A stretch of 64,000 nucleotides of DNA from Lujinxingiaceae bacterium (GTDB taxonomy: Bacteria; Myxococcota_A; Bradymonadia; Bradymonadales; Bradymonadaceae). The stretch spans positions 7,200 through 71,199 of the forward strand of contig JACCWM010000084.1 in NCBI GenBank assembly GCA_013697635.1, read 5' to 3'. Both the position numbers and the translations under genes were made by a program. The notes beneath the pieces are model-generated. The model had not been told where the DNA came from and searched no databases. It saw only the letters and a list, made by a program, of their open reading frames with translations. This document shows, piece after piece, positions 6,148-47,108 of the stretch (within the stretch, counting starts at the first letter, position 1; each line of letters starts with the position of its first letter).

Positions 6148-6276
6148 GAAGGCGCCCATCGGCCATGCATGCTCGTCGCGAGACGCGCTGACATGGTGGA
6201 GACGACAATTTCGTGTTAGTGACTGCTCATGTTTTCCACGCGCGCAGCAGCTGACACAACGGATAGGAGAGTGGTC

Positions 6277-6390: not shown

Positions 6391-6472
6391 TTGGTCGCCT
6401 TCGGGCGATCGAAGGTCCACTCGAGCGAGTGCGACCGCGCCTGGCGACTCATAATGAACGTAGGAGATTCAC

Positions 6473-6841: not shown

Positions 6842-6937
6842 AGAAAAGCTGTCAACGGATGGCCATTTGTGGGCCGTCTTGACCGGTGGTGTACCATCGA
6901 GAAGTTGCCCGAGAGGGCGAACGGGAGATTTTGAGTC

Positions 6938-7327
6938 ATGGTTAAAGGCAAGACGAAAACAAAACGCAAGGTGCGCAAAAATGTCCCCACGGGCATCGCG
7001 CACGTTCATGCGACCTTCAATAATACCATCGTGACCCTGACGGATAGCTCCGGCAACGCGTTGTCGTGGTCGAGTGCGGGTGCGCGTGGCTTCAAGGGCT
7101 CCAAGAAGTCCACGCCTTACGCCGCTGGCATCGCTGCAGAGGATGCCGCACGCAAGGCGCAGGAGCATGGTCTCAAGACTATTTCGGTCTTTCTCAAGGG
7201 CCCGGGACCTGGGCGCGAGTCTGCGCTTCGTTCGTTGCAGTCGGCGGGTCTCAAAATCACGGCGATCCGTGACGTGACGCCGCTGCCGCATAACGGGTGC
7301 CGTCCGCCCAAGCGTCGTCGCGTCTAA
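6938..7327 (+). CDS. rpsK: 30S ribosomal protein S11
   Basis: [45 protein letters not shown]...[18 protein letters not shown]. Confidence 0.97.
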
Positions 7328-7443
7328 GTCAGGCTCGACGATCACCTGAGTTCGACCATCTTCCGTGAGACGAAGGCCTCTGACACACTTGGACGGCGCT
7401 CCTCTCATCGTGATCAAACAATCGTTGTGCGGAGGCATAGTAC

Positions 7444-8448
7444 ATGTACCGAAACTGGCGAGATCTCATTAAGCCTCGCGAGGTGACCATCGACCCTCGC
7501 TCGAAGACCGACACGTACGGTAAATTTGTATGTGAGCCATTTGAGCGCGGATACGGTATCACGGTGGGCAACGCTCTGCGACGCATCCTGCTCAGCAGCA
7601 TCATGGGTGCGGCCGTTACCAAGTTGCGCATCGATGGTGCTCTGCACGAGTTCACCAGCCTGCCCGAGGTCAAGGAAGACGTCACCGACATCATCCTCAA
7701 TCTCAAGGAGTTGCGTCTCAAACTCCACGGCAATGACGCCCAGGTGGTCACGATCGATGTTGAAGGCCCCTGCGTGGTCACCGGCGCCGACATTGCCACG
7801 GGTGCCTCGGTCGAAGTGCTCAACCCTGAGCACGTGATCGCGACGGTCAGTGAGAAGGGACGGCTTCGCATGGAGCTGACCGTCGAAGCTGGGCGTGGCT
7901 ACGTCGTCGCCGAGGACAACAAGGCAGAAGAAGATCCGATCGGGGTCATCCCGATCGACAGCCTTTTCAGCCCGATTCGCAAGGTGAACTACCAGATCAC
8001 CAATGCACGCGTTGCCCAGCGTACGGATTACAACCGTCTGACTCTGGAAGTCTGGACCGACGGCAGCGTGGCTCCCGAGGATGCCGTGGCTTTTGCCGCA
8101 AAGATTCTCAAGGAGCAGGTCTCAATTTTCATCAACTTCGACGAGACCGCCGAGCCGCAGGAAATCATCGAGGAGGCCGAGCCGGAGTTCAACGAGAACC
8201 TGCTCAAGCCCATCGACGAGCTCGAGCTCTCCGTGCGAAGCTTTAACTGCCTGCAGACCGCAGGTATCAAATATGTGGGCGATCTTGTCCAAAAGACCGA
8301 GGCGGAGCTGCTCAAGACCAAGAACTTTGGTCGCAAGTCGCTCAAGGAGATCAAGGAGATTCTCGAGAAGCTCGGGCTTGATCTGGGACTTCGAATCGAG
8401 AATTGGCCTCCGAAGGAACTGGAGAGGAAGACGGCCGAGGGTGGTTGA
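7444..8448 (+). CDS. rpoA: DNA-directed RNA polymerase alpha subunit
   Basis: [28 protein letters not shown]...[47 protein letters not shown] (NTD plus CTD HhH). Confidence 0.98.
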
Positions 8449-8508
8449 TTCCCCCACGCGCCTTTGAAGCTGTAGAGCTATGTCTCGCGCAGCACAAGGA
8501 ATGAGATC

Positions 8509-8955
8509 ATGCGACATTTGAAATCCGGTCGTTCGCTTAGCCGCGATGCAGCTCACCGCAAGGCGATGCTGCAGAATCTGGCCGCGAGCCTGATCAAGTA
8601 CGAAATCATCCAGACCACCGATGCCAAGGCCAAGGAATTGCGCCGCGTCACGGATCGGTTGATCACCCTGGGCAAGCGTGGAACGTTGCATGCGCGTCGT
8701 CAGGCTTTGGCTCAGATCAATGACGCCGAGCTCATCGGCAAGTTGTTCGACGATCTGGCCAAGCGTGAGGCGATTGCCACACGTGAGGGCGGCTACACGC
8801 GCCTGATCAAGGTGGGCAACCGCCAAGGCGACAACGCACCGATCTCCAGGATCTCCTGGGTTGGCTCGACCCTTGAGAACACCGAAGCGCTTCGCTACCC
8901 GGCCCATATTCGCGAGCAGTTCGTGACCGAAGATGAGGACGAAACCGAAGCCTGA
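8509..8955 (+). CDS. rplQ: 50S ribosomal protein L17 with short acidic C-terminal tail
   Basis: MRHLKSGRSLSRDAAHRKAMLQNLAASLIKYEIIQTTDAKAKELRRVTDRLITLGK. The tail is ...TEDEDETEA. Confidence 0.95.
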   Translation: MRHLKSGRSLSRDAAHRKAMLQNLAASLIKYEIIQTTDAKAKELRRVTDRLITLGKRGTLHARRQALAQINDAELIGKLFDDLAKREAIATREGGYTRLIKVGNRQGDNAPISRISWVGSTLENTEALRYPAHIREQFVTEDEDETEA

Positions 8956-8988
8956 TTGCCGTGGCTTTCGTTAGCGTGACTTGAAAAG

Positions 8989-9024
8989 TCCCGATAGGAT
9001 CTCGATCCGTCGGGATTTTTTTTT
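8989..9024 (+). terminator. Rho-independent terminator of the ribosomal operon
   Basis: tcccgataggatctcgatccgtcggga hairpin followed by a run of 9 T, located 34 nt after the rplQ stop. Confidence 0.7.
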
Positions 9025-9070
9025 AAGTTCTTTGCTGGAAGGGATGGTGCCGCGTATGGGCCACCGACGT

Positions 9071-10693
9071 ATGACATTCAGGCGTGCGGGCAGAGCGATC
9101 GATTGGCTCAAGGTAGTGGTCTTTTGCCTGGCTGTGATCGCGGCGAGCTCTTGCACCCACGGGCGGATGATCAGCCGTGGCGATCAGCACTTTGAGAAAG
9201 GGCAATACGAAGAGGCACTTGTCGCCTATGAGGATGCTCATAGGGCTCGACCAGACTCTTTGGAAGCGACACAGCGAGTCGAAACCACGCGAGTTCGCCT
9301 CGTCGAGGTGTGGGCGGAGCGATCTCGGGCAAGCATTCGGCTCGAGAATTATCTCGAGGCCATTGATAACGCTGCGCGGGCGCTAAGTTTTTCGCCCAAC
9401 AATCCCCAGGCCCGCGCGATCGAACGCGAGGTCGTTGTGCGGATCGAAGAGCGCGCAGGCAAGGTGCTCGAAAGCGCTGACTTTGCTCAGGCCCTCAGGC
9501 TCTACGATGCGGTCTTCGAGCGCCTGGGCAATCAGGGGCAGGAGGCCCAGGAGCGGCGCGCAGAGATTCGAATCCGGTGGTCCAAAGACCTGGTAAAAAG
9601 GGCCGACGTGGCGGAGCAGGATTCGCAACCAGCCCGAGGGGTTTTGTTGTTGTCCAAGGCGTTTGCGTTGACCGCAGATCCGGAGCTTGCCAGCCGGCGC
9701 GACGCCTATCTCGACCGGGTCCGGGCAGAACGTCGCTACAAGGTGCTCGCTGTGGGTAATTCCGCCGAGGCAGGTTTTGCCTACGTCAGTGAGCGGCTGA
9801 TGCGAGAGATGATGGGTCCATTTTTCGAAGTGTATTCGCCAACGGTGGACAAGCCACAGGCCAGCCTTCGCCTGGCGGTCGGTAAGCCTCGCTTTGATAC
9901 CGATCGGCGCACGCGTACAGAGCGCGTCAACTATCAATCTGGGACGCGTCAGGCGCCAAATCCGCACTACAAGTCGCGACAAGATCGCGTTCACGACGAG
10001 GAGCGCAGAGTTCTCGAAGTCGAGCAAGAGATCACGCGCCAGCAGCAGTATGTGTCCAAGTATCAGAGCGATGTCGAGCGTGAGGGGCCGTCGCCCAATG
10101 TGTCGACCGGTGCCGAGCAAAATCTCAGCAACGCGCGAAGTAGGCTCGAGTCCGCGCAGCGGCGCGTTATCGATCAACGCCAGCAACTGCAGCGCGCTCG
10201 CGACGATCTGAACAATAGTCCGCAGTTTGTCGAAGAGGCGGTTTACTCCGATCACACCTACACGGTGACAACGCATACCTTGCGCGCTGCGGCTTCGTTA
10301 CATGGCGAGCTGACCCACCGAGACGGACGCGCTGCGATTCCGCTTGATGCACAATTGCAAGTGGAGGCAAGCGACGACGAGTATGCCGCGCAGCCCGTCA
10401 TCAACCTCGCTGAGCGACGACTCGAACTACCGAGCGCACAGGCGCTGACGCCTCGCCTCTACGAGCAGGCCTACAGGCGCAGCTATGATGCGCTCGCCCA
10501 CAGTTTTGAGCAACATCGGCTAGAGTTGTTCGATAGGGCAAAGAACACCACGGCCAGCGATCAACGCAGCGAGCTCTACGTGATCTATATGTTGATGGAT
10601 CTGGGCTCGATCGAGCCGTCTGCATCGATCGCGCTTGCAGCGCTCGAGGGAATTCCTGACAGTGTCGCGGTATTAACGCAGCTCGCTCGCTGA
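9071..10693 (+). CDS. Lipoprotein with TPR-like N-terminal region and Arg/Gln-rich coiled coil (function unknown)
   Basis: Signal/lipobox MTFRRAGRAIDWLKVVVFCLAVIAASSC. The track start at 8981 would include the rplQ terminator, so a later Met is used (9044, 9056 or 9071 are possible). Confidence 0.6.
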   Translation: MTFRRAGRAIDWLKVVVFCLAVIAASSCTHGRMISRGDQHFEKGQYEEALVAYEDAHRARPDSLEATQRVETTRVRLVEVWAERSRASIRLENYLEAIDNAARALSFSPNNPQARAIEREVVVRIEERAGKVLESADFAQALRLYDAVFERLGNQGQEAQERRAEIRIRWSKDLVKRADVAEQDSQPARGVLLLSKAFALTADPELASRRDAYLDRVRAERRYKVLAVGNSAEAGFAYVSERLMREMMGPFFEVYSPTVDKPQASLRLAVGKPRFDTDRRTRTERVNYQSGTRQAPNPHYKSRQDRVHDEERRVLEVEQEITRQQQYVSKYQSDVEREGPSPNVSTGAEQNLSNARSRLESAQRRVIDQRQQLQRARDDLNNSPQFVEEAVYSDHTYTVTTHTLRAAASLHGELTHRDGRAAIPLDAQLQVEASDDEYAAQPVINLAERRLELPSAQALTPRLYEQAYRRSYDALAHSFEQHRLELFDRAKNTTASDQRSELYVIYMLMDLGSIEPSASIALAALEGIPDSVAVLTQLAR

Positions 10694-10750
10694 TGGGCGA
10701 AGTCGATCGCTACCGCTCAGTTTTTACCCTTTTACCAAGGTCCAAGAGTC

Positions 10751-13465
10751 ATGCGCGTTTCTGATTGGTATGGGCTGCCTGCAGGCAGCCCGCTTCGATT
10801 CGTCGTCCTGAGCGTGCTTTTGCTTTCGGGCGGGATCATTTCGGGTTGCTCCAGGCCGCAACCGGCCACAGAGGCTGCGCCAGCCGTTGTGCAAGAGACC
10901 CCGGGTCGTGTCGAGGCACCGACGGCGCAGACCACCGAGGCGCCCAAACGAATCATCCTGTTCATCGGCGACGGCATGGGTGTTGGCGCGATCACCGCGG
11001 CCACCTATGCCAAGGGGGAACCGCTTCATATGCTCGGCATGCCGCACGTGGGGTTTAATACCACACACGAACATGAGTTTGTGGTCGCGGATTCAGCGGC
11101 GAGCGCTACGGCCTTGGCTACCGGGCACAAGACGCACTTCGAGGCAGTCAGCGTCAAACCCGGAACACTCAAGAGTCAGGAGGAGGATTCGGCCAACCAT
11201 CTGGAGACCATCGTTCAGACAGCGCACGCGGCCGGTTGGCGCACCGGGCTCGTCGCGACAAGTCGGATCAATCATGCGACTCCCGCAGCTTTTGCTGCAC
11301 ACCGCAGCAACCGCAACGATTACGAAGACATCGCTCACGATATGAGCCTCTCGCAGATCGATGTCATGCTTGGCGCCGGCTCCAAATTCTTCGAGAAGCG
11401 ATCCGATGGTCGGGATCTCTTTGCGGCGATGGGTGAGCGCGGTTATACGGTGGCGCGAAGCGCCGAAGACGTACAGCTTGCTCGCAAGCAAAAAGCCAGA
11501 AAACTCGTGGGATTGATGCACGACTCGGACATGCCGTCAGCGCAAAGTGGGGAGCGCGCGATGAGTCTGAGTCAAATGACGACCACGGCCATCGAATTGC
11601 TCGACAACGACAACTCCGAGGGCTTCTTCTTGATGGTCGAAGGATCGCAGATCGATTGGTTTGGCCACGATCTCGACGGTGTTGGGGTCGTCGCCGAGAC
11701 GCTCGACATGGACGAGGCCGTTGGTGCTGCGCTGGCCTATGCGCGCACCCGCGATGACACCTTGGTTGTCGTGACCGCGGATCACGAGACCGGCGGGATG
11801 AGCGTGCTCGATCCTGAATACATGAGTCGCTATCTGCTCGTGCTCGGTGGCCAGGGCGCCGCCGAGAAGTCGGTCGCCCTTGCCTCGCATCCCGATGCCA
11901 AGTCGCGGCCGTCACCATCGCCGGCGCAACATATCACGCTCGGTTCACTGAACGTGGGCGAGAGCACCAGGGAGGGGGCCATGGGCGCGCAGTTTGCCTT
12001 TGGGCCGCAAGAGCTCAAAGATCGGCGCCTGACCACCGATTTTGGTTACTTGTCTGTGGCGAGTCGGCCTCACTGGCAGCAAGCGGGCGCTTTCTCAGCC
12101 TCCCATACGGCGGTCATGGTCCCGGTTTTCGCGCAAGGACCGGCAGCGGCCTCTGTGGCTAGCGTGATCGACAATGCTGATCTGGGCGCGCGGCTCATTG
12201 AGCTCGTGCAGTGGCATGGCCGCGCTGATCGCCAACCGATCGAGGCGGGCATCGTCGGTGGCGTGGAGCGGCCTCAAAACGTGATCGTGCTGATTGGCGA
12301 TGGCTTGGGCCTGAGCTCGTTGACTGCCGCACTCTATGTGCGCGGTCATTTGGAGATGTTGGCGATGCCGGTCAAGGGTCTGGTCGCCACCCATGGCACG
12401 GACCGCGTTGTCAACGACTCGGCGGCGACCGCCACGGCGCTTGCCACGGGGCGTCGCACGCGCTCCGGGGTGGTCGGCATGGCGCCAATCGACGGTGAGC
12501 TACGAAGCGTCGAGACTGTTTTGGAGCGCGCCGGCGCGAGAGGCCTTCGCACAGGCCTGGTGACCACCACAACGCTGACGCATGCGACACCGGCGTCATT
12601 TTACGCGCATCACCCCGATCGCAAGGCGGAGAAAGCCATCGCCGAGTTCTACATGGACATGCCCCAGCGAATCTCTGGCTATGGAGGCATCGACGTAGCG
12701 ATTGCCGGTGGCTCGGAGATTTTCGGTGAAAAGCGATTGGCACAGTTGCGAGAGCGCGGCGTTCATGTCGCGCTTGAATGGAGTGGCGAGCCACTCGCGA
12801 CCGACGCGCCCACGTTGCACTTGCTGGCCGCAGGCGGGCTGCCTGCGGCCGCGCAGCGCCATGGAGTTCAGGCAAGCGTGCCCTCGCTTGCGCGCATGAC
12901 CGACGCAGCGATCACCAGTCTCTCGGCGCGCCAGCAGGGCTTCTTTCTGATGGTAGAGGGAGGCCAGATCGATTGGGCTCTGCACGGCCTCAACCGTGGC
13001 CAGGAGCTGATCGACGAGATCGTCGACTTTGACGAGGCCGTTGCCGCTGCTCTGGAATTTGCGCGCAAGGATGGAAACACCCTTGTGATCGTGACCTCTG
13101 ACCACGATCACACCATCTCAGTGCTCGACAATCATTACATCTTTTCCGAGGGCCACTGCGGTGCCGCCAAACAATGCGGCGGCCACTATGAGATGGCGGT
13201 GTTGCCGGTCGCGACGTCCAAGCTGCACCGCAACGAGGGGTTGAATGATCTCAAACTGCAGGGCGATTTCGGCCCGCCCGGACTCCTCTTGCAGTATTCC
13301 TGGGCAGTGCTCGCTGCCAATGAACGTGTGCGCATGGCCGGACCTCACGCAGCCAACTTCGTACCGCTGTTTGCTTACGGTCCGTGGGCTGCGCGCTTTG
13401 GTGGATTTCACGATCAACCTGACGTCGGCAAGCTGCTCATGGAGTGGGCTAGCTCTGCGCCCTGA
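10751..13465 (+). CDS. Lipoprotein made of two tandem alkaline phosphatase (PhoA-family) domains
   Basis: Lipobox LLLSGGIISGC. Half 1: ILFIGDGMG...DSAASATALATGHKT...GFFLMVEGSQIDWFGHD...VTADHETGG. Half 2: VIVLIGDGLG...DSAATATALATGRRT...GFFLMVEGGQIDWALHG...VTSDHDHT. Confidence 0.9.
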   Translation: MRVSDWYGLPAGSPLRFVVLSVLLLSGGIISGCSRPQPATEAAPAVVQETPGRVEAPTAQTTEAPKRIILFIGDGMGVGAITAATYAKGEPLHMLGMPHVGFNTTHEHEFVVADSAASATALATGHKTHFEAVSVKPGTLKSQEEDSANHLETIVQTAHAAGWRTGLVATSRINHATPAAFAAHRSNRNDYEDIAHDMSLSQIDVMLGAGSKFFEKRSDGRDLFAAMGERGYTVARSAEDVQLARKQKARKLVGLMHDSDMPSAQSGERAMSLSQMTTTAIELLDNDNSEGFFLMVEGSQIDWFGHDLDGVGVVAETLDMDEAVGAALAYARTRDDTLVVVTADHETGGMSVLDPEYMSRYLLVLGGQGAAEKSVALASHPDAKSRPSPSPAQHITLGSLNVGESTREGAMGAQFAFGPQELKDRRLTTDFGYLSVASRPHWQQAGAFSASHTAVMVPVFAQGPAAASVASVIDNADLGARLIELVQWHGRADRQPIEAGIVGGVERPQNVIVLIGDGLGLSSLTAALYVRGHLEMLAMPVKGLVATHGTDRVVNDSAATATALATGRRTRSGVVGMAPIDGELRSVETVLERAGARGLRTGLVTTTTLTHATPASFYAHHPDRKAEKAIAEFYMDMPQRISGYGGIDVAIAGGSEIFGEKRLAQLRERGVHVALEWSGEPLATDAPTLHLLAAGGLPAAAQRHGVQASVPSLARMTDAAITSLSARQQGFFLMVEGGQIDWALHGLNRGQELIDEIVDFDEAVAAALEFARKDGNTLVIVTSDHDHTISVLDNHYIFSEGHCGAAKQCGGHYEMAVLPVATSKLHRNEGLNDLKLQGDFGPPGLLLQYSWAVLAANERVRMAGPHAANFVPLFAYGPWAARFGGFHDQPDVGKLLMEWASSAP

Positions 13466-29903: not shown

Positions 29904-29975
29904 GCTACTTGATGGTGGACAGAATACCCATCCTCTCATACCCTTGGTGCAGAGGAAGCAAACACAAGGAAAGTC

Positions 29976-30224
29976 ATGCTAGACCTAGCCCTCAAGACTG
30001 TCGCATTTGTGCTCGTCGCCGGCTTCACTACCGCGGCATTGGGTAGTTCGCCGGCCTACGCACAGCGTGTCATTGAGTTCGAGGAGATCGTGGTCGAGGG
30101 GCGCATACAAAAGCCGGAGGCGTTCTATATCCTTCAGCACGCCAATCTCAACTACGAAGCACTCAATCCCAAGCCTTCCTTTTTGAAAGAGTTGCTGGAG
30201 ACGGTCGAAGATGACTTGTTCTAG
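29976..30224 (+). CDS. Small secreted protein (82 aa), in the position of GltF
   Basis: MLDLALKTVAFVLVAGFTTAALGSSPAYAQ signal peptide and a mature part of about 52 aa. Assigned by size and position only. Confidence 0.5.
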   Translation: MLDLALKTVAFVLVAGFTTAALGSSPAYAQRVIEFEEIVVEGRIQKPEAFYILQHANLNYEALNPKPSFLKELLETVEDDLF

Positions 30225-30479: not shown

Positions 30480-31127
30480 ATGGGCGCAATCGCTGAAGCC
30501 TTTCGTACGGGCGGTATATGGATGTACATCATCCTTGCCACCAGCATTTTTGCACTTGGTATCACCATCGAGCGCTTTTTCTTCTTGTTCTTTAAGTACA
30601 ACATCAACGCGCAAGCGTTCATGGCTCAGATCCAGAAATTGGTGATGGCGGACAATGTGGATCGAGCAATCAAGTTGTGCAACGCGGCTCCTTCGCGTGC
30701 ACTTCCCCAGGTCATCAAGGCCGGGTTGACGCGTGCGAACAAGGGCGAGGTGGAGATTCAAAATGCCATCGAAGAGGCGACCCTCGAGGTCGTGCCCAAG
30801 GTTCAAAAGCGCACCCCTGCCCTGCAGACCATCGCCAACGTGGCGACGTTGCTCGGCCTTCTGGGTACAATTATCGGTCTGATCGAGGCCTTCGAGGCTC
30901 TCGAGAAGGCCACCCCGGAGAATCGTCAGCGCATGCTCTCGCGTGGTATCGCTATGGCCATGAACACGACCGCTTTCGGTCTGGTTGTCGCCATCCCGAC
31001 GCTGGTTGCCCACCTTATTTTGTCGGGCATGACCAAGAAGATCCTCGACGAGATCGACATGTACAGTGTCAAGCTCGAGAACCTTCTGGTAACGCGCGGC
31101 AAGGGTGGCTCGGCTCCTCTGGAGTAA
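30480..31127 (+). CDS. MotA/TolQ/ExbB-family proton channel (AglR-like)
   Basis: GGIWMYIILATSIFALGITIERFFFL...LQTIANVATLLGLLGTIIGLIEAF...GIAMAMNTTAFGLVVAIPTLVAHLIL. Three TM segments with family motifs. GGAGG RBS present. Confidence 0.9.
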   Translation: MGAIAEAFRTGGIWMYIILATSIFALGITIERFFFLFFKYNINAQAFMAQIQKLVMADNVDRAIKLCNAAPSRALPQVIKAGLTRANKGEVEIQNAIEEATLEVVPKVQKRTPALQTIANVATLLGLLGTIIGLIEAFEALEKATPENRQRMLSRGIAMAMNTTAFGLVVAIPTLVAHLILSGMTKKILDEIDMYSVKLENLLVTRGKGGSAPLE

Positions 31128-31280: not shown

Positions 31281-31943
31281 ATGGCGCGCCGCCCACGGGT
31301 CGTGGATCCAGAGTCAGATCTGAACCTCGCACCCATGATGAACCTGGTCATCATTCTCATCCCGATGCTGCTGCTCTCCGTTGTTTTCTTGGAGGTAGGT
31401 GTCATCAATATTACCGCGCCGACGTTGTCGGTGGGGGCGCCAAGCGAGCCCAAGGACGAGCCGGAGGAGCAACCGCTCAATCTCACGGTCGCCATCTCGG
31501 CCAACGGTTTTCAGATTGCGGCAACAGGTGTGGTCTTGCCTGCCCGTGCTGGATGCCCGACGCAGGGGCCGACGATTTGTCTCGACGATCAAAATGTCGA
31601 TGTGTCGGCAAAGTTTGAGGAAGCCCGTCGCATCATGTCCGCCGGCAGCGAAGGCGGTGGAGAGGACGTGCTCAAGCAAGGCTTGGCTGCTTACAGTTTT
31701 CGTGAGTTGTACAATCAACTCTCGCGCATCAAGAAAGAGTATCCCAAAGAGACGATTATCACCTTGTCGGCCGATGCCGATGTCCCCTACGCGGTTTTGG
31801 TACGTGTGATGGACGTGGCGCGTTTTCAACTCGAGAAGGATTCGTACGACACGGCGAGCGATTTTTGGAGCGCGACGGCCAAGACCGAGGGCAATGCCTA
31901 CTCGGAGCTCTTCAGTGATCCGGTGTTGTCCATTTTGCAGTGA
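31281..31943 (+). CDS. ExbD/TolR-family protein, paralogue 1 (TM Asp replaced by Asn; long C-terminal domain)
   Basis: SDLNLAPMMNLVIILIPMLLLSVVF aligns with TolR EINIVPLLDVLLVLLLIF. The Asn codon AAC is at 31341-31343. 220 aa. AAGGAGG RBS present. Confidence 0.8.
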   Translation: MARRPRVVDPESDLNLAPMMNLVIILIPMLLLSVVFLEVGVINITAPTLSVGAPSEPKDEPEEQPLNLTVAISANGFQIAATGVVLPARAGCPTQGPTICLDDQNVDVSAKFEEARRIMSAGSEGGGEDVLKQGLAAYSFRELYNQLSRIKKEYPKETIITLSADADVPYAVLVRVMDVARFQLEKDSYDTASDFWSATAKTEGNAYSELFSDPVLSILQ

Positions 31944-31977: not shown

Positions 31978-32577
31978 ATGCAAGACAATGAAGAGAAAGT
32001 GGCCGGATTTGGTCATGATGAAGAAGAATGGATTCGGGCTCAACGCGCCCGGGAAGCCAAGCGCAACAAGAAAAAGCGCGGCGGTGAGACCGGCACACTG
32101 AGCATGAACTCACTGATGGACATTCTTGTCATCATGCTCGTCTTCCTGCTCAAGAGCTACGGCGACGAGCCGATTAAGGCGGTCGGCGAGGATCTCAAGG
32201 TTCCGAGCAGCGCCTCGCAGCTCAACCCGGAAGACACGACCGCGGTGACGATCTCGCGCAAGTCGATTTTGGTGAACGACAAACTGGCCGTCGACGTCAA
32301 GAATGGCGCGATCGATCAGAGCCAGAAGCGCGGCGGCGATCGCGGCATGATCATTCAGCCGCTGTTCGACGAGTTGACCGACGCGATCAACAAGAAGAAG
32401 CGCGAAACCACTTTGCTCGGTCAGACCTACGAGCCGGTGGCCACGATCATCGCCGATCAGACCACGCCCTATCGGTTGATCACGGAGGTGATGTACACCG
32501 CCGGGCAGGCCGAATTGCGCCAGTTCAAGTTTGCGGTGATCAAGGGTGACATGAAGTCATTCGGTCCTGCCGACTGA
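31978..32577 (+). CDS. ExbD/TolR-family protein, paralogue 2 (TM Asp conserved; Lys/Arg-rich N-terminal extension)
   Basis: TLSMNSLMDILVIMLVFLLKS with GAC (Asp48) at 32119-32121. 199 aa. Confidence 0.8.
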   Translation: MQDNEEKVAGFGHDEEEWIRAQRAREAKRNKKKRGGETGTLSMNSLMDILVIMLVFLLKSYGDEPIKAVGEDLKVPSSASQLNPEDTTAVTISRKSILVNDKLAVDVKNGAIDQSQKRGGDRGMIIQPLFDELTDAINKKKRETTLLGQTYEPVATIIADQTTPYRLITEVMYTAGQAELRQFKFAVIKGDMKSFGPAD

Positions 32578-32735: not shown

Positions 32736-32850
32736 CGCGTGGTTCCATTTACTAGGCGTCTATACATGAAGTTTTCGCTTTGGCGACCTGGGTTAACGTT
32801 GGGAACTGTTGGTTCTCACGTCCGGGCGTGAGGCTCCGAAGGATCTTTTT

Positions 32851-34233
32851 ATGTCCAGCCAGTCCGGCCAAAAAGTTCTGCGCATAGGGCTGATTCAGAA
32901 CGGAAAGATCATCGAAGAGCGCTTGATGCGCTCTATGAAACCCGTCACGATCGGCAGTGCGTTAGAGAAGAATGAGCTCGTTGTTCCGGCCTCGGATCTT
33001 CCGAAGTCGATGACGGTTTTTGACGTCAGCAACGGGCGCTACGTTCTACATTTCACCTCCAAGATGAGTGGGCGCGTTTCGCTTGGCGATGGTGTTGTCC
33101 CTCTCGAGGAACTGATCAGCAAGGGAAAGGCCAAGAAGACCGCTCAGGGCTTCTCGGTCGAGTTGCCACCCAATGGTCGGGGCAAGGTCGTCATCGGGGA
33201 GGTCACGCTGCTGTTTCAGTTTGTGACGGCTCCTGCGGCGCGTCCCAAGCCCGTGCTTCCCGCTTCGATGCGCGGTGGCTGGGGGCGTGGAATGGACCGG
33301 GCGCTGGGCTTGATCATCTTGCTCTCGGCGATCTTGCAGATCGGCTTCGTCGTTTATCTAGAGACCCAACATTTTCTCATTGAAGACATTGAGTACGTCT
33401 TTCCCACCCGCTTCGTCCAGATTTCCGTGGACAAGGATGAGGAAGAGCCGCCCAAGGTCGAGGTCGAAGTCACCGATGGCGACGGCCCCAGCGTCGAGAC
33501 CGAGGAGCCTGTGGCGACCAAGAGCGAGGATAAGGGCAAGGAGAGTCCCGAGGAGATGGCCGAAGATCGGGCGCGTGAGCGGACGATGAAGGCCGTTGAG
33601 GACAAGACTCTGCTGCGTGTGCTCGGTGCCAAGGGAGAAGGCGGCTCGGTGGTCGACACCCTGCTCAACGGCGTGGGCAACATCTCGGCCGAGGAGGCCT
33701 TTGCCAACTCGACGGGCGTGCAGCATGCCGAGGCCGGCGTCGAGCGCAGCGGAATCCGCGGCAAGGGCAGCCCCGATGGCGATGGTGTGGGAGCGCGCGC
33801 GGGCATCGATGAACTCGGCGCGATGAAGGGTGCCAAAAAGGCTCAGGGCGGCGTCGACACCGGCCAGATAGCCGAGCGTCAGGTCAAGGCGCGACCGATC
33901 AAGATCCAGGATCCCAACGACATGGCCGGCGGCACGCTGGACAACAAGACCGTCTCGACGGCGATTCGTCGTCGCCAGGCGGCGATTCAGGCCTGCTACG
34001 AGCGCGAGCTTCGCCGCAATCACCAGGCCGGCGGCCGCGTGGTGATCAACTTTACGATCAGCGCACGTGGCTCGCGCGGCGCCGTCACCCAGGCCAAGGC
34101 CGTTGTCGACGACGTCGGCGGTGGCGTGGGCCAGTGCGTGGCCAACGAGATCCAGAATTTGCGCGGCTTGCCAGCGCCAGATGGTGGCGATGTAATTATC
34201 AACATGCCGTTTGTCTTTCAGCCCGGCCAATAG
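32851..34233 (+). CDS. Bitopic inner-membrane protein with AgmX/PglI-type (TonB-C-like) C-terminal domain, GltG/GltJ-like
   Basis: Single TM ALGLIILLSAILQIGFVVYL, an acidic linker, and the C-terminus IQACYERELRRNHQAGGRVVINFTISARGSRGAVTQAKAVVDDVGGGVGQCVANEIQNLRGLPAPDGGDVIINMPFVFQP. ATG 32851 has an AAGGA RBS. Confidence 0.75.
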   Translation: MSSQSGQKVLRIGLIQNGKIIEERLMRSMKPVTIGSALEKNELVVPASDLPKSMTVFDVSNGRYVLHFTSKMSGRVSLGDGVVPLEELISKGKAKKTAQGFSVELPPNGRGKVVIGEVTLLFQFVTAPAARPKPVLPASMRGGWGRGMDRALGLIILLSAILQIGFVVYLETQHFLIEDIEYVFPTRFVQISVDKDEEEPPKVEVEVTDGDGPSVETEEPVATKSEDKGKESPEEMAEDRARERTMKAVEDKTLLRVLGAKGEGGSVVDTLLNGVGNISAEEAFANSTGVQHAEAGVERSGIRGKGSPDGDGVGARAGIDELGAMKGAKKAQGGVDTGQIAERQVKARPIKIQDPNDMAGGTLDNKTVSTAIRRRQAAIQACYERELRRNHQAGGRVVINFTISARGSRGAVTQAKAVVDDVGGGVGQCVANEIQNLRGLPAPDGGDVIINMPFVFQPGQ

Positions 34234-34427: not shown

Positions 34428-35030
34428 ATGAAGATACGATGGGTTTCCTTCGTGGTCATCACCTTGGCGTTCGCGCTTGTCGGAGGGCTCGTCGTTGCGC
34501 AGCAGCGAGGCGGCCTCAATGAACAAGCGATTCGCGAGTTCAACGGGCGTAACGGCCGCGCATTGATCGACGAAGATATCGACAAGCTGACCGGCCCTCA
34601 GAAGTTGGATCGAAGCCAGAATAAGATCGCCACGATGAAGGTCGCGCTCGAGTCCACCGACCAGCTGCTTGGACGGGCGCGCACTCAGGAGCGTGATATC
34701 CTCAAGATCAACTGCATCAGCGAGAAGCTCGCGGCCGTCAAGGGCTTCGTCAAGGTCAGCGAGCAAAGCTATGTCAGTCTCTCCGATTCCGTGGGCAAGA
34801 GCGACAACGAGGCCTCCAAGCATCACTACACCCTGATCGCTATCGCCGGTCAAAAGGTCGGCGGTCTCAGTGAAGAGGCGCGTGTCTGTGCCGGCGAGGA
34901 GGTGCGTTATGCCGACGACACCATGCTCGATGTGACGATCGATCCGGACATCATGCCCAGCGACGAGTCCTTCTGGGGAGACGATCCACTCGTGCTCGAG
35001 TCACTTCCCAAATTCACCCCTTATTATTGA
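34428..35030 (+). CDS. Secreted, mostly helical periplasmic protein (200 aa), unknown family
   Basis: MKIRWVSFVVITLAFALVGGLVVAQQ signal peptide. Ends ...SLPKFTPYY. Confidence 0.55.
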   Translation: MKIRWVSFVVITLAFALVGGLVVAQQRGGLNEQAIREFNGRNGRALIDEDIDKLTGPQKLDRSQNKIATMKVALESTDQLLGRARTQERDILKINCISEKLAAVKGFVKVSEQSYVSLSDSVGKSDNEASKHHYTLIAIAGQKVGGLSEEARVCAGEEVRYADDTMLDVTIDPDIMPSDESFWGDDPLVLESLPKFTPYY

Positions 35031-35183
35031 AATTATTGAAAACTCTGATGCCCAACGCAGCCTTTGATTGCGGCGTTGGTTCAGTTCGACTGAGGAATTG
35101 CCTTAATCGCCTCCACCACTTCAATGGATGATTCGCGCCAGTAGCGAGTGTGGAAGGCTTTTCACATAGAATCGAGAATCTGT

Positions 35184-36491
35184 ATGGATGCAAAACTGAG
35201 AACGACGTGCCACATCGCCGCCTTCATTGCGCTGGTGATCGCGGTACCCGGCTCCGTGCGCGCCGAGCCCGGTGACGGTCTGCGCTCGGGCAATCTTCAG
35301 CTTAGCCCGGGCGTGATGCTGGGCACGGGCTTTGATACCAACCTCTTCTATGGCTCGGGTAGCGAGGAGATTCGTCAGGCTCCGATGGGCATCTTGGAGC
35401 CGCGTCTCAAGATTGCGACCATTGAGCCGACCAACTTCGATCTTGCGTTTAACGGCGCGGTGGGCTGGACGCAGTACTTCTCACTGCAGGAGGACGCCGT
35501 CACCAGGCAAAGCGGCCTCTCCTCGGCGTTGTCCGGCAGTGGTACGCTCAATCCGCGAGGCAACCTCAGCCTGCGCTTGAGCAACCACTTTTTGCGCACC
35601 AACGAGACCCCGAGCTCGTCGAGCGATGACAGCGTCAATCGCATTTGGAACCGCTCCGGTGTGGTGCTCGGGTTTCACCCGGGTGGGCGCGTTCTCGAAT
35701 CGCATCTGAGCTACAACTATACCGTTTATCGCCACAATCTCTATACCAACCTCGACCGCGGCAGCCACGGCCTGGGCTGGCGCAGTTCTTGGAAGTTTCT
35801 TCCCAAAACAGCGTTGGTCGCCGATGCAACCTATTCGATCGTGGGTTATCGCGGGGCGCAGGCGGATGATGCCGAGCGCATCGTCAAGGTTAACAGCACG
35901 CCGCTTCGTCTGTTGGGTGGAGTCAACGGCCTGTTGACCAACCGCCTCGGTGCCAAGCTGATGGCCGGATACGCCTGGGGCTTTTACGATGCCGGCGACT
36001 CCTTTCAAGGCGTGGTCGGCCTGGCCGAAGGCTATTACGGCTTTGGCAGCCATGGCATGAACAACCGCCTTCGCATCGGTTACGAGTACAATTTTCGAGA
36101 CTCGCCGATCAGCAACTATTACACCTTTCACCGTGTTTTTGGCGGCTATGAACAGGGCTTGATGAACAATCGTTTGCGTCTGGGGCTCGAGACCGAGACC
36201 CAGATTCGAGACTACCGCTACGCTGGTGGAGGGGTGCGCTTGCCCACCGCCAATGGCGGTGAGGTCGAGACGCCTAATTCGGTCAACGATCTGTCGGTGG
36301 GCGTGCGCGCCAGCGCCGGGTACCAACTCTCGGCCTGGTGGAATGCGGAGCTGAGCTATCGCTTCGGCACCAATTTCACCGATGACCAGATCCGCGTCTT
36401 CGAACAAAGTGGAGATATCGAACCCTCGCAAATTATTCTGCGTGAGTTCGTTCGCCACCACATTATGTTTCAGACGACCTTTACCTACTGA
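35184..36491 (+). CDS. Outer-membrane beta-barrel protein (GltH-like, or ExoB/EpsX-type partner of a short OPX protein)
   Basis: Signal peptide IAAFIALVIAVPGSVRAEP, alternating-hydrophobicity strands with Gly/Tyr/Asn-rich turns, and the C-terminal OMP signature ...IMFQTTFTY. Confidence 0.7.
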   Translation: MDAKLRTTCHIAAFIALVIAVPGSVRAEPGDGLRSGNLQLSPGVMLGTGFDTNLFYGSGSEEIRQAPMGILEPRLKIATIEPTNFDLAFNGAVGWTQYFSLQEDAVTRQSGLSSALSGSGTLNPRGNLSLRLSNHFLRTNETPSSSSDDSVNRIWNRSGVVLGFHPGGRVLESHLSYNYTVYRHNLYTNLDRGSHGLGWRSSWKFLPKTALVADATYSIVGYRGAQADDAERIVKVNSTPLRLLGGVNGLLTNRLGAKLMAGYAWGFYDAGDSFQGVVGLAEGYYGFGSHGMNNRLRIGYEYNFRDSPISNYYTFHRVFGGYEQGLMNNRLRLGLETETQIRDYRYAGGGVRLPTANGGEVETPNSVNDLSVGVRASAGYQLSAWWNAELSYRFGTNFTDDQIRVFEQSGDIEPSQIILREFVRHHIMFQTTFTY

Positions 36492-36683
36492 TCAGCGCCG
36501 GCCGCCCTTTTGGGTCCGAGTTGTGGCGCTGTGAAAAGCCCTAGAAATCAATAAGTTACGATGGTCCATGCGAGTGGTTGTGCGTGCTGGCCGCGTTCGT
36601 GCTATCGGTAATTGCGTGGCACGGCATGCCGCATGTGGCGGGATGCCGGTCGCTTTCAACAATTTGCCCCCGTGGGTGGCTTC

Positions 36684-37310
36684 ATGCATACATACAAGAT
36701 CTCGAGCCTGCGCTGGCTGCTGCCCATCGTCATCGCGCTGGGATGGGTTTCGGCCTGCACCCACGATCGTGTCGATCCGGCTTACGCTGCGCTCGTCGAA
36801 CAGCAAAATGATATGCCCGAGACCGGTGAACTGGGACCGGGTGACAAGTTTCAGATCCGCGTATTTGCCGAGGAAGATCTCACCGGTGAGTTCACGGTCT
36901 CGACCGATGGTACGGTCAACTACCCCTATGTTGGCCGCTTCCAGGTGACCGGTTTGACCTGCGCCGACGTCGAGGAGTTGGTCACCAACGGGCTAAAGGG
37001 CGGCTTTGTGCGAAGCCCCAGCGTGTCGTGCTCGATCACGGAGTACAATTCCAAGCGAATATTTATCTTTGGCGAGGTCAAAAAGCCTGGTTCCTTTGCA
37101 TACAAATCCAATATCAGTATCATCGAGGCGTTCGCGCTCGCGGGTGGGTTCGGTGAGCGTGCAAATACGAATAACACCAAGTTGACCCGCGTGGTTAACG
37201 ACGTCGAGATTCAGGTGCGTGTGCCGATGCAGGAGATCGTCGAAGGCCGACAGAGAAACATTCGGCTGCTGCCTGGCGATATCATCTACGTGCCGGAGTC
37301 GGCCTACTGA
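36684..37310 (+). CDS. Short OPX (Wza-like) polysaccharide export lipoprotein without the C-terminal OM-spanning helix
   Basis: Lipobox LPIVIALGWVSAC. Poly_export motif GPGDKFQIRVFAEEDLTGEFTVSTDGTVNYPYVGRFQVTGLT. SLBB RIFIFGEVKKPGSFAY...LLPGDIIYVPES. About 209 aa, whereas E. coli Wza as I recall is substantially longer. Confidence 0.85.
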   Translation: MHTYKISSLRWLLPIVIALGWVSACTHDRVDPAYAALVEQQNDMPETGELGPGDKFQIRVFAEEDLTGEFTVSTDGTVNYPYVGRFQVTGLTCADVEELVTNGLKGGFVRSPSVSCSITEYNSKRIFIFGEVKKPGSFAYKSNISIIEAFALAGGFGERANTNNTKLTRVVNDVEIQVRVPMQEIVEGRQRNIRLLPGDIIYVPESAY

Positions 37311-37334: not shown

Positions 37335-38762
37335 GTGGCAACCAATCAAGGCGTGGCCGATGTTGGCCGAGATGTCGCTGCAAAGCAGCCTCTCGAGACC
37401 CTCAAGGGCGTCTACAGCGTGGAGCAGGTCCTCGGTGAAGGGGCGTTGGGGCGCACCTACCTGGCGTCGGACAACTCGCGTGGCGGCGCAAAGGTGGCGA
37501 TCAAGGAGCTGCTGCCCAGTCGCATGAAACGCTGGAAAGACTATGAGCTCTTTCACCGCGAATGCAGCATGCTGCGCAGCCTGAATCATCCGGGGATCCC
37601 TTCCTATTTCGAAGACTTCATCGTCGAGAGTGACGATCCGAGCGTGCCGGCACGCCTGTTCCTCGTTCAACGTTTTGTCGATGGAAGGTCGCTCCAAGAT
37701 CGACTCGATGATGGCGAGGTTTTCAGTGAGGAGCGGGTACGCGATGTGGCCGTTCAGGCACTCGAGATTTTGTGCTATTTGCACGGGCTCAACCCGAAGG
37801 TCATTCACCGCGACATCAAGCCGTCCAACCTGATGCTGACGCCGGGTGGCAAGGTAATCTTGATCGACTTTGGCGCGGTGCGCGAGGCGGTGACCGCCGA
37901 TGGTCTCGGCTCGACGATCGTTGGCACCTTCGGCTACATGCCGCCGGAGCAATATGCCGGTCAAAGCGTTGCGGCAACAGACCTGTTCGCATTGGGAGCG
38001 ACCTGTGTGCAACTGCTCACCGGACGAGAGCCAGGCGAGCTCTTCGAGGGGCTTCACACCTTTCGCATTCCTGATGACTTGCCGGTAACCCTGGGCTTTG
38101 AGCGGATCTTGTTGGGAATGACCGAGCCGGAGGTTTCTCGGCGCTTTCAATCCGCGCAAGAGGTGCTCGATGAGCTTGCTTTCGGCTTTTTGATGGTTCC
38201 CAAAGACGCAATCACCGGGAAGTTGCCCATTCCCAACGAGATTCGCCCGGCGCCGCGGCCGATGCCCGGCTTTCAACTGCGCGATGCCTACCACGGTCGA
38301 AGTCATCTGAGCGTGCTGCTGGTGGGCGGGGTGGGCGCGACGCTGACGTTGGTCTTTCCGATCACGGCGATCTGGCTGGGCTCTGGGGCCTTGTCGATCC
38401 TGGGCTTTTTCTTGGTGGCTGCAACGCTTTGGAGCGCAGGTATGGTCAGCTTGCGCGCGCGCATTGAGATCGACGCCTACCGCCGGGGCATCTACACGCT
38501 GGGCGAGGTGACGGGACGCTTTCTCAGCGCTTCGTCAGGCGTCGAGTTCACGCACATGACTTATCGCTACCGGGCCGGCTCGGGTTTTTTATACGGCAGT
38601 GTGTCGACGCGCGACCGCGCTTATCGCACGCTCTCGCCGGGCGATCCGGTCGGGGTGATTTATCTGAGCGAGGAGCCCGACGAGCACGTGATGTATGCCG
38701 TGCCCGCAGAGTGGGCGAAGCGCCAGACAGTCGGCCTTCGGCAGCTGTCTGGCGCTTCATGA
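37335..38762 (+). CDS. Hanks-type Ser/Thr protein kinase with C-terminal TM segments and DUF3592-like domain (GTG start)
   Basis: GEGALGRTYLA...VAIKEL...HRDIKPSNLML...DFGAVR...GTFGYMPPEQ. Then TMs VLLVGGVGATLTLVFPITAIWLG / ILGFFLVAATLWSAGMV and YTLGEVTG...YRYRAGSGFLYGSVS...GDPVGVIYL. Confidence 0.9.
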   Translation: MATNQGVADVGRDVAAKQPLETLKGVYSVEQVLGEGALGRTYLASDNSRGGAKVAIKELLPSRMKRWKDYELFHRECSMLRSLNHPGIPSYFEDFIVESDDPSVPARLFLVQRFVDGRSLQDRLDDGEVFSEERVRDVAVQALEILCYLHGLNPKVIHRDIKPSNLMLTPGGKVILIDFGAVREAVTADGLGSTIVGTFGYMPPEQYAGQSVAATDLFALGATCVQLLTGREPGELFEGLHTFRIPDDLPVTLGFERILLGMTEPEVSRRFQSAQEVLDELAFGFLMVPKDAITGKLPIPNEIRPAPRPMPGFQLRDAYHGRSHLSVLLVGGVGATLTLVFPITAIWLGSGALSILGFFLVAATLWSAGMVSLRARIEIDAYRRGIYTLGEVTGRFLSASSGVEFTHMTYRYRAGSGFLYGSVSTRDRAYRTLSPGDPVGVIYLSEEPDEHVMYAVPAEWAKRQTVGLRQLSGAS

Positions 38763-45057: not shown

Positions 45058-45927
45058 ATGAGCATGGATATAGAGGAGATCGCGATCAGGGTGTCGGGGC
45101 TGCAGGTGGCGGGGCGAGCCTGTGGACCCCGCGACGGCTATCCCGTGCTGTGTATGCACGGCTGGCTGGACAACGCGGCTAGCCTGGAGCCCTTGCTGGC
45201 GCTTTTGCCGGCGAGCTTTCGTTTTGTGGCGCTCGATCTGCCCGGCCACGGCCGCTCCGAGCACAAGAGTGAAGATGCCTCCTATCACTTCGTCGACTGG
45301 GTGGCGTCGGTGGTCGATGCGGCCGACGCGCTGGGCTTTGGGCGTTTTTCGATTCTGGCGCACTCGATGGGCGCAGCGATCGCGACGATGGTCGCGCCGG
45401 TGATCGCCGAGCGCGTCGAGCGCATGGTGCTGATCGACGGTCTAGGGCCGTGGACTCTGCCTGGCGAGTGTGCGCCCGAGCAGCTTCGGCGCGCGCTCTC
45501 GGCGCGCGCTGTGCTTGGCTCCAAGAGCGCGCGCCGCTTTGAGAACATCGAGCAGGCCGTGGCCGTGCTCAATCAGTCCTATGCCGACTTGTCGCCGCAA
45601 AATGTGCGCCGAATCGTCGAGCGCGGCAGCCGCCAGCTCGCCGATGGTGGGCTGAGTTTTAGCTACGATTTGCGCTTGCGGGGGGCCTCGATGATGCGCC
45701 TTAGCGAGGAGCAGGTCCGCGCGTTTTTGGCCGAGATCGGCTGCCCGGTGCTGATGGTGCGCCCGCTTCAAGGCTGGCCGCTCGATGCCGAGACTTTTGC
45801 GGCGCGCTTTGAGGCGATCAAGGGCGCCCGCTTGCTCGAGGTCGAGGGCGGCCATCACGTGCACCTCGAGGCGCCCGAGCGCATGGCCGAGGCGATCGGG
45901 GCATTTTTGCTCGAAGGACAGCCATGA
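45058..45927 (+). CDS. Alpha/beta-fold hydrolase
   Basis: PVLCMHGWLDNAAS...FSILAHSMGAAIA (nucleophile elbow)...GGHHVHLE. Confidence 0.85.
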   Translation: MSMDIEEIAIRVSGLQVAGRACGPRDGYPVLCMHGWLDNAASLEPLLALLPASFRFVALDLPGHGRSEHKSEDASYHFVDWVASVVDAADALGFGRFSILAHSMGAAIATMVAPVIAERVERMVLIDGLGPWTLPGECAPEQLRRALSARAVLGSKSARRFENIEQAVAVLNQSYADLSPQNVRRIVERGSRQLADGGLSFSYDLRLRGASMMRLSEEQVRAFLAEIGCPVLMVRPLQGWPLDAETFAARFEAIKGARLLEVEGGHHVHLEAPERMAEAIGAFLLEGQP

Positions 45928-47108
45928 GCACAGCGAGTGAGCGTGCTGAGATCTTGAAGCGGACGATGGTCTTTTCGGCCTTGTCCGAGGCGGATCTGCG
46001 CGCGCTGGCGCCGGTTTTTCGCCCGCGCGTGCTGGCCGATGGCCAACATTTGTTCAAGGCCGGCGAGCCGGGCGATTATCTGGCCGTGGTGGTGCGCGGT
46101 GTGCTGTGCGTGGACGTCTCGTCGACGCCGGCTGTGCGGGCGTCGGCCGGCGAGCTTGGGGCCTTTGATGTGGTCGGGGAGATGGCGTGTTTGGATCCGG
46201 CGCCGCGCTCAGCGAGCGTGATGGCGCGTGGCGAGGTGGAGGTGTTGATCTTGACGCGTGTGATGCTCGATGCGCTGCGAATCAACGCGGTCGGCCTCTT
46301 TGCCGCGGTGATAGGCGGGCTGTCGCGGCGCGTGACCGAGCGTGTGCGCGAGACGAATGCGCGCATCAGCAAGCTGTTGTGGGCGCGACGGGAGGCGATC
46401 AAATCGCCGGCCGGCTCGATTGAAGGCTATTTTTTGGATGCGGCGAGCCCGACGCTGCACCGGGGGCCGCTTGATCTGGCTTCGCTCGTGGCGCTTCGCT
46501 CCTTTGCGCCGGCCGAGCTCGGCGCGCTGCAAGGCGCGGCGCGCGCGCTGCACTTTGCCGACGGCGCGCTGCTTTGTCGGGAGAGCGATCCGGGTGCGAG
46601 CTGTTTTATCATCTGCCAGGGCCGCGCCGACGTCGTGAAGATCGTCGGCGGCCGAGCCTACAGCTTTGCCAGCATCGCTGAGGGTAGCCTGGTCGGCCAA
46701 ATGGCGCTGCTCGATCGCGTCGAGCGCTCGGCCACGGTGCGCGCGCGCGGTGAGCTGGTCGCCCTGGAGCTGTCGCGCGACAGCTTCGAGGCGCTCTTGA
46801 GAGCGCACAGCCCGCTGGCGGTGCGCTTTCAGGAGCTGGTCACGATTTCGGGCATCCGACAGCTTCGCCTGGCCAACGCCATGCTCGCGTTTTTGATTGA
46901 GCGCGGTGTTCAGACGCCGAGCGCTCTGGCAGCGCAGATGCCCGAGGTCGACGCGCAGCATGACGAGCTGGGGGCGCTGGCGCAGGCCTACTTGCAGACA
47001 GCGCTCGGGGAGTGGAACGTGACGCCCTCGGAGCTCAAGAATATCCGGGTGGCCAAGCTCGACGGGATGATCAGTCAGGCGGAGTTGCAGGGCCGGCTCA
47101 AGAAGTGA
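45924..47108 (+). CDS. Protein with two cyclic-nucleotide-binding (CAP effector-type) domains and no recognisable output domain
   Basis: Domain 1 FKAGEPGDYLAVVVRG...VVGEMACLDPAPRSASVMARGE. Domain 2 CRESDPGASCFIICQGR...LVGQMALLDRVERSATVRARGE. ATGA overlap with the hydrolase gene. Confidence 0.8.
   Translation: MSTASERAEILKRTMVFSALSEADLRALAPVFRPRVLADGQHLFKAGEPGDYLAVVVRGVLCVDVSSTPAVRASAGELGAFDVVGEMACLDPAPRSASVMARGEVEVLILTRVMLDALRINAVGLFAAVIGGLSRRVTERVRETNARISKLLWARREAIKSPAGSIEGYFLDAASPTLHRGPLDLASLVALRSFAPAELGALQGAARALHFADGALLCRESDPGASCFIICQGRADVVKIVGGRAYSFASIAEGSLVGQMALLDRVERSATVRARGELVALELSRDSFEALLRAHSPLAVRFQELVTISGIRQLRLANAMLAFLIERGVQTPSALAAQMPEVDAQHDELGALAQAYLQTALGEWNVTPSELKNIRVAKLDGMISQAELQGRLKK

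Follow-up and report, generated by a model that had tools for sequence, protein, structure and literature searches.

A predicted WzpB/WzaB-type polysaccharide translocon joined to a G4-type Glt/Agl gene cluster in a member of the Bradymonadia

Why would a pair of polysaccharide export genes lie directly behind a cluster resembling the gliding machinery of Myxococcus xanthus? The question is raised by a 64,000-nucleotide stretch of a Lujinxingiaceae genome of the order Bradymonadales (assembly GCA_013697635.1, contig JACCWM010000084.1, positions 7,200 to 71,199), referred to here as the window. In it, a gene for an outer-membrane β-barrel is followed by one for a short lipoprotein of the OPX (outer-membrane polysaccharide export) family, both downstream of Glt-like genes with stator subunits among them. 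The initial annotation of the window had proposed that a short OPX protein and its dedicated barrel form a composite translocon inside a Glt-like locus, and the domain composition, the number of barrel strands and the homology to WzpB and WzaB of M. xanthus support this proposal. We consider it likely, from sequence comparison and structure prediction, that the two genes encode a composite outer-membrane polysaccharide translocon of the WzpB/WzaB type. Full-length homologues of both proteins are numerous and arranged alike, so that the pairing is not a matter of chance. The related loci were collected by scanning an alignment of the OPX protein against one genome per species (GTDB); the census comprises the best 80 of 317 matches, scored with our own profiles of the cluster proteins, and the taxonomic labels of metagenome-assembled genomes (MAGs) are those given by the submitters.

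The barrel had been given two competing readings, a GltH-like motor component or the partner of the OPX protein. Its open reading frame spans 35148-36491, and the ATG at 35184 yields a protein of 435 residues, equal in length to the database copy (P0001) and to the homologues. A type-I signal peptide can be read at the N-terminus (MDAKLRTTCHIAAFIALVIAVPGSVRA/EPGDG), and the last residue of the protein (...FQTTFTY) is aromatic, in agreement with the coordinates, length, signal peptide and ...TTFTY ending described before. The barrel alignment contained 30 homologues, which, where named, belong to Bradymonadaceae or Lujinxingia. The AlphaFold2 model shows 18 long strands (predicted local distance difference test score, pLDDT, 89.8; predicted template modelling score, pTM, 0.82), the number published for EpsX, ExoB and WzpB (PMC9601211, PMC9603273); a count of the strands had been advised in the initial annotation. 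The profile of the window barrel homologues matched Myxococcus WzpB, encoded by the gene preceding WzaB, with an E-value of 2.3e-61, and in the reverse BLASTP search of Myxococcus WzpB against the genome that carries the window (the window genome) this barrel was the sole match (E = 7e-10); a barrel of the WzpB type is present there in a single copy.

The position of the gene after gltG is roughly that of gltH in the M. xanthus G1 cluster (PMC3169522), which would suit a motor component of the GltH, GltA or GltB type with the OPX gene as an unrelated neighbour. However, the mature protein of ~408 residues has a mass of ~45 kDa, as estimated from the residue count, whereas mature GltH, GltA and GltB of M. 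xanthus have 20.0, 25.4 and 27.5 kDa, respectively (PMC9946355), and barrels of this family are always paired with an OPX protein, the loci without Glt genes included. Together with the 18 strands and the WzpB homology, these differences render a GltH-type barrel very improbable; the barrel is the partner of the OPX protein.

Neither Pfam nor NCBIfam, the gliding families of the latter included, gave a match above threshold for the window barrel, and the threshold of PF10082 (BBP2_2) was passed only by its homologue from locus L006. Foldseek searches of the PDB returned AlgE (5d5d; template modelling scores 0.48/0.51) and PgaA (4y25) among hundreds of generic barrels and are not discriminating. 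A likeness to WD40 proteins (phmmer against PDB, E = 7e-13) was rejected: it is confined to residues 149-175, the matches are designed and natural repeat proteins, no single stretch passes alone, and the score looks like an artefact inflated by repeats.

The second gene, within an open frame spanning 36612-37310, starts with the ATG at 36684 (MHTYKISSLRWLLPIVIALGWVSAC...) and encodes 208 residues; the earlier description of its product as a lipoprotein holds, while the length of 209 residues given with it does not. The lipobox V-S-A-C with Cys25 can be read directly (...ALGWVSA-C25-THD). The Poly_export domain (PF02563) was detected at 2.4e-19 (69.7 bits; cut-off, 28 bits) and SLBB_2 at 5.8e-10 over residues 148-227 of the 232-residue frame, which leaves 5 residues to the C-terminus. 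Pfam searches found no Wza_C (PF18412) or GfcC match and no further family at E <= 0.01, as anticipated from the initial reading of one Poly_export and one SLBB domain without a helix spanning the outer membrane. The closest solved relative is PDB 9N9A (E = 1.4e-43), which is WzaB, a Class-3 OPX protein that serves the M. xanthus pathway for the biosurfactant polysaccharide (BPS) (PMC12819527); for E. coli Wza the value is ~1e-18, over domains D1-D2 only. Conversely, Myxococcus WzaB finds the window OPX protein as its sole match in the window genome, with 39% identity.

Because its product lacks the D3 and D4 domains that Wza of E. coli has, the gene might be taken for a truncated, decaying remnant of wza. 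Yet OPX proteins of D1D2 architecture make up the commonest class and do function in M. xanthus (PMC9603273, PMC12819527). The window gene is intact, with a product 59-77% identical to homologues in other Bradymonadales, and encodes the sole OPX protein of a genome that has a pathway with a polysaccharide co-polymerase (PCP) of type 2a. Decay is thus even harder to credit than a GltH-type barrel. The gap of 192 nucleotides between barrel stop and OPX ATG (36492-36683) is as noted before; the median of the family is 27 nucleotides (55 loci), and the longer distance is common only to the nearest relatives. In comparison with these relatives the spacer revealed no conserved element except directly 5' of the ATG, and signals for a terminator or promoter did not rise above chance level.

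What polymer would such a translocon export? Neither a glycosyltransferase nor a Wzx, Wzy or PCP gene was found in the 64-kb window, and our family scans agree in this with the initial annotation. The assembly has a size of 6.2 Mb and a completeness of 99.45%, and it contains one Poly_export gene, that of the window, no Wzz match, and one PCP of the GNVR type, a 745-residue protein that includes a fused tyrosine kinase and has a tail rich in Tyr (PCP-2a; contig C32, 162862-165099). The cluster around this PCP gene also encodes Wzx, a Wzy_C-like protein of 823 residues, a WbpM-like enzyme, a TviB-type UDP-GlcNAc 6-dehydrogenase (643 bits, above cut-off) and a UDP-glucose dehydrogenase, and no OPX gene was found in this cluster. 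Directly 3' of the OPX gene, 11 related loci encode a PCP-2a that is a homologue (1e-87 to 1e-114) of the one on C32. With one OPX protein, one barrel, one PCP and an OPX-less C32 cluster in the genome, the pair is, according to this census, the exit of its sole Wzx/Wzy/PCP pathway and neither an orphan nor a remnant. A pathway lacking its own OPX gene, which had been proposed as something to look for, does exist, and the option of an orphan pair falls with it; the barrel is not small, the OPX gene is intact and unique, and no complete Wza is encoded elsewhere. The two NDP-sugar 6-dehydrogenases in the C32 cluster indicate that the exported polymer is probably acidic. Contig C32 also contains a 3676-residue open frame (134352-145379, minus strand) a few kb from the Wzx/Wzy/PCP cluster and a further AglR/ExbD set with a TonB-like protein of 1136 residues (93663-99516).

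In M. xanthus the lipidated OPX protein oligomerises under the porin, with its C-terminal tail directed to the porin and its apical loop to the PCP, and the binding of WzaB, WzpB and WzcB has been published (PMC12819527). By analogy, the window OPX lipoprotein would be anchored in the inner leaflet of the outer membrane and would oligomerise into a periplasmic funnel. As it has no membrane-spanning helix, its hydrophobic/aromatic C-terminal tail (...PESAY) would dock under the 18-stranded porin, which would be the actual pore for a polymer made elsewhere by the single Wzx/Wzy pathway on contig C32.

The upstream genes (Table 1) raise the second part of the question. The GltG-like protein matched the NCBIfam models gliding_GltG (6.5e-32) and myxo_SS_tail (1.9e-19), the latter above cut-off, and at the GltF position genes for 83-85 residues are also found in loci L001 and L005. 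The WzaB locus of Myxococcus (L087) was located starting from the 9N9A sequence; its genes, with MXAN numbers (e.g., MXAN_1922, MXAN_1917) assigned by gene count, encode two TPR proteins of 809 and 1110 residues, proteins of 489, 91 and 447 residues, a cyclic nucleoside monophosphate (cNMP)-binding protein and proteins of 187, 432 (WzpB) and 204 (WzaB) residues. All nine have their best match in the window cluster, in the same order. In the window genome, the best matches of the 809-, 489- and 447-residue proteins are the GltC-, GltE- and GltG-like proteins, respectively, and the 1110-residue protein matches the GltD-like one with 34% identity (E = 0). Reciprocally, the window GltD-like protein retrieves this Myxococcus gene (C29:88130-91297) with 592 bits, compared to 174 and 144 for its paralogues. 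Luciano et al. list MXAN_1922 as the G4 homologue of gltD and report that motility does not depend on this cluster (PMC3169522). Judged by these matches, the window cluster, which has stator genes inside, is orthologous to G4 of M. xanthus (MXAN_1917-1923), a Glt paralogue.

Table 1. Features of the Glt-like cluster and the translocon genes (positions in the window).
Feature	Position	Strand	Basis or remark
First gene of the co-directional cluster, 294 residues	21602..22486	+	no Pfam/NCBIfam family; ends 6 nucleotides before the GltC-like gene
GltC-like TPR protein, 795 residues	22493..24880	+	TPR families; NCBIfam gliding_GltC 1.4e-18, below cut-off
GltD-like TPR protein, 1224 residues	24880..28554	+	reciprocal best match to M. 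xanthus G4 gltD homologue
GltE-like TPR lipoprotein, 450 residues	28551..29903	+	NCBIfam gliding_GltE 1.1e-24, full length, below cut-off
Small protein at GltF position, open frame with uncertain start	29913..30221	+	44% identity to the Myxococcus G4 91-residue gene
AglR-like MotA/TolQ/ExbB proton-channel subunit	30480..31127	+	Pfam MotA_ExbB 7.1e-27; position kept in relatives
Two ExbD/TolR-like stator partners	31281-31943, 31978-32577	+	Pfam ExbD 1.3e-12, 2.3e-09; both kept in relatives
GltG-like TonB-type inner-membrane transducer, AgmX/PglI C-terminal domain	32809..34233	+	NCBIfam matches
Protein X, 200 residues, predicted secreted three-helix bundle	34428..35030	+	alignment A3, AlphaFold2 model
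Predicted 18-stranded outer-membrane β-barrel porin, WzpB orthologue, 435 residues	35184..36491	+	AlphaFold2 model, WzpB profile match
Intergenic spacer, 192 nucleotides	36492..36683		barrel stop to OPX ATG
Class-3 (D1D2) OPX lipoprotein, WzaB orthologue, 208 residues	36684..37310	+	Poly_export + SLBB_2; 9N9A match
Membrane Ser/Thr kinase, lineage-specific neighbour	37335..38762	+	Pkinase 4.3e-36

The complete stator (AglR and two ExbD proteins) and the GltC-, GltD-, GltE- and GltG-like proteins might nevertheless suggest the gliding engine of the organism, with the translocon secreting slime for gliding, the more so as slime polysaccharide aids Glt adhesion in M. xanthus (PMC7310880). Three lines of evidence make this unlikely. 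The cluster is orthologous to G4 and not to G1; G4 is dispensable for gliding in M. xanthus (PMC3169522); and the window genome encodes a second Glt-like cluster (C38:5001-18969, locus L094) with GltC, GltD, GltE, a GltG with an FHA domain and a TPR protein, which scores much better with the gliding models of GltC, GltE and GltG (328, 155 and 419 bits against 67, 87 and 111 for the window) and pairs with a different Myxococcus paralogue. By these scores, the C38 cluster is the better candidate for the actual machine of gliding or Nfs type. The reciprocal best matches, their wide margins and the better C38 candidate all argue that the window cluster is G4-type and not a gliding machine. The "motor locus" of the initial annotation is this G4-type paralogue with its own stator genes, and nothing in the analysis ties the pair to slime deposition, a relation that had been put forward as possible. 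As a side observation, a tandem cNMP-binding protein is encoded ~8.6 kb downstream of the OPX gene (45924-47108) and is the second-best match in the window genome of the 148-residue cNMP-binding gene product encoded between the GltG-like protein and protein X in Myxococcus G4.

Between the GltG-like gene and the barrel lies the gene for protein X. The protein has a signal peptide, two conserved cysteines and a disordered tail ending with P-x-x-(T/S)-P-(Y/F), and its AlphaFold2 model reaches a pLDDT of 80.6 overall and 96-98 in the three-helix core. No PDB fold match at E <= 0.001 and no Pfam or NCBIfam family were found for X, while its own family comprises 2171 clusters at E <= 0.001 and 1490 at <= 1e-10. 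It is a single-copy gene in the window genome, and its counterpart in M. xanthus is, by gene count, MXAN_1917. X is always encoded directly 5' of a Wzp-type barrel, in loci linked to Glt genes and in those linked to a PCP alike, and therefore appears, on the evidence of gene order, to be part of the translocon module.

How old is the junction of the two gene sets? A strong barrel match was obtained in 49 loci; a GltG-like gene lies just upstream in 36 but not in 8, and the remaining 5 are too short to tell, so that the order GltG-X-barrel-OPX is kept in 36 of the 44 assessable loci. Most linked loci also contain AglR and two ExbD genes, those of Myxococcaceae and Archangiaceae being without them. 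In the barrel tree the linked state is present in every deep clade, while unlinked loci form two or three nested groups, chiefly a clade with the order X-barrel-OPX-PCP. This distribution suggests that the linkage is ancestral and was lost a few times. The joining is tightest in L050 (OY763407.1, a 2.95-Mb MAG chromosome), where positions 1-13404 form one tight operon in the order GltD-GltE-AglR-ExbD-ExbD-GltG-231-residue protein-barrel-OPX-PCP-2a, and GltG, barrel, OPX and PCP also stand in one string in L054 and L035, with junctions in the three loci of 1-25 nucleotides. In L006 (Logan contig SRR29483437, 1-13158), GltG-X-barrel-OPX runs straight into genes for a Wzy_C/TPR protein, a Glycos_transf_4 phosphoglycosyl transferase, an epimerase, an aminotransferase, a methyltransferase and a family 4 glycosyltransferase (GT4); this is a fully merged Glt-like and biosynthesis locus. 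In the window, no terminator-like site was found from the GltG-like gene to the kinase gene, which begins 24 nucleotides past the OPX stop and is kept in L001 (Bradymonadales TMQ1), other genes taking its place in L005. The L050 operon is followed by genes for an RlpA-like protein (DPBB and SPOR domains) and SpoIID.

Whether the linkage reflects a functional coupling is a more delicate matter. On the analogy with related machines we give about an even chance to the proposal that the G4-type, proton-driven machine acts on the translocon or on its polymer. A precedent is provided by Agl-Nfs, which handles the spore-coat polymer exported by Exo (PMC3858216). No GltA/B/H-type barrel was detected in the window cluster by a search that was not rigorous, and for this reason the Wzp/Wza pair would be the outer-membrane module of the G4 machine. 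In the model of the Glt machine, the outer-membrane barrels have GltC docked beneath them, and GltF links GltC to GltD and GltG (PMC11761067); a similar place beneath Wzp/Wza could be taken by the GltC-like protein.

Several observations weigh against the picture of a WzpB/WzaB-type translocon served by the G4 machine. The WzaB motifs that bind the porin WzpB (Phe203-Phe204) and the PCP WzcB (Arg106-Arg107) (PMC12819527) are only partly kept in the window OPX protein, as Ala-Tyr (tail ...PESAY, with the terminal aromatic residue retained) and as Arg-Ser (loop V-R-S-P), respectively; among the 80 relatives the OPX tail is always hydrophobic/aromatic, and of the basic residues of the loop only the first is common. 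The M. xanthus G4 cluster has no stator genes, and the disruption of its gltD homologue left motility normal, polysaccharide not being the phenotype scored (PMC3169522). The gaps of 150-200 nucleotides between GltG, X, barrel and OPX in the window genome make internal promoters possible. Finally, the nested clade with X-barrel-OPX-PCP and no Glt genes nearby implies that the translocon does not need a G4 cluster next to it in order to work.

The last two points also favour linkage without coupling, in which the pair would be the exit of the unlinked pathway and its place behind the unrelated G4 genes an inherited order. Likewise, WzaB, WzpB and WzcB are sufficient for a trans-envelope complex in vitro (PMC12819527), and the literature treats mxan_1915 as an orphan OPX gene for the distant BPS cluster (PMC7310880, PMC7484181). 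On the other hand, the gene order persists over the whole distance between Bradymonadales and Myxococcaceae (29-40% protein identity), whereas the flanks change, the strings of L050, L054 and L035 leave next to no space between the genes, and the non-rigorous search detected no other outer-membrane component of a G4-type machine. We regard linkage without coupling as a serious contender, though its probability is somewhat below one half.

If the G4 machine does act on the translocon, a broader proposal can be made, to which we hold tentatively and with rather less than even confidence: G4-type Agl/Glt core complexes would be periplasmic partners, driven by the proton motive force, of Class-3 OPX/porin translocons, and the export or handling of polysaccharide would be the older job, from which the machines for the spore coat (Nfs) and for gliding (Glt) were derived. 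Acting through X and a scaffold of the GltC/D/E TPR proteins, the stator and the TonB-like GltG would either work on the WzpB/WzaB exit itself, by gating, energising or moving it, or pull its polymer.

A full-text literature search for MXAN_1917 to MXAN_1922 found only Luciano 2011, and no discussion of the Glt neighbours of OPX genes was found in the OPX papers searched by term; the conserved linkage of G4 and translocon appears undiscussed in the literature searched. The kind of translocon is already known, and what is new is its Bradymonadia version with the stator inside the cluster, the census with a single OPX gene and the barrel tree. A WzpB/WzaB-type translocon is now seen in the class Bradymonadia, as the only OPX pathway of the organism, and from Bradymonadales to Myxococcus, the model species included, the same pair is found joined to a Glt/Agl cluster of the G4 type. 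The linkage hints at a role for the non-gliding Glt 'core complexes', which have been functionless on paper since 2011, and makes this role testable by a simple M. xanthus experiment. It also nominates protein X, with its ~2000 clusters and no annotation, as a third component of the translocon.

The window system can be set beside four known ones. It shares with E. coli Wza (Class-1; PDB 2J58) the Poly_export and SLBB domains (E ~1e-17) and the lipoprotein anchor; Wza needs no porin because it has domain D3 and the Wza_C outer-membrane helix, both absent from the window OPX protein. As in Agl-Nfs and Exo (ExoA/ExoB = WzaS/WzpS), a proton-driven Glt-like machine is found together with polymer export through a short OPX protein and a barrel (PMC3858216). 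However, the nfs genes of M. xanthus do not lie next to exo, the Nfs machine includes barrels of its own (NfsA/B/H), and the coupling was shown experimentally for Agl-Nfs/Exo, whereas for the window cluster it is only inferred. From M. xanthus G4 the window cluster differs in having AglR/ExbD/ExbD inside, as in the ancestral 'core complex', in the absence of a cNMP-binding gene between GltG and X, and in the Ser/Thr kinase after the OPX gene, but the two share the order GltC-GltD-GltE-small protein-GltG-...-X-barrel-OPX and are reciprocal best matches. The closest likeness is to M. xanthus WzpB (MXAN_1916) and WzaB (MXAN_1915), at ~29% identity for the barrel and ~39% for the OPX protein. In both, a Class-3 D1D2 OPX gene directly follows that of an 18-stranded porin (PMC9603273, PMC9601211), the pair is directly preceded by protein X and a cluster of Glt paralogues of the G4 type, and it lies far from the Wzx/Wzy/PCP-2a cluster, whose PCP has a fused tyrosine kinase; M. 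xanthus has three OPX pathways, whereas in the window genome this is the only one.

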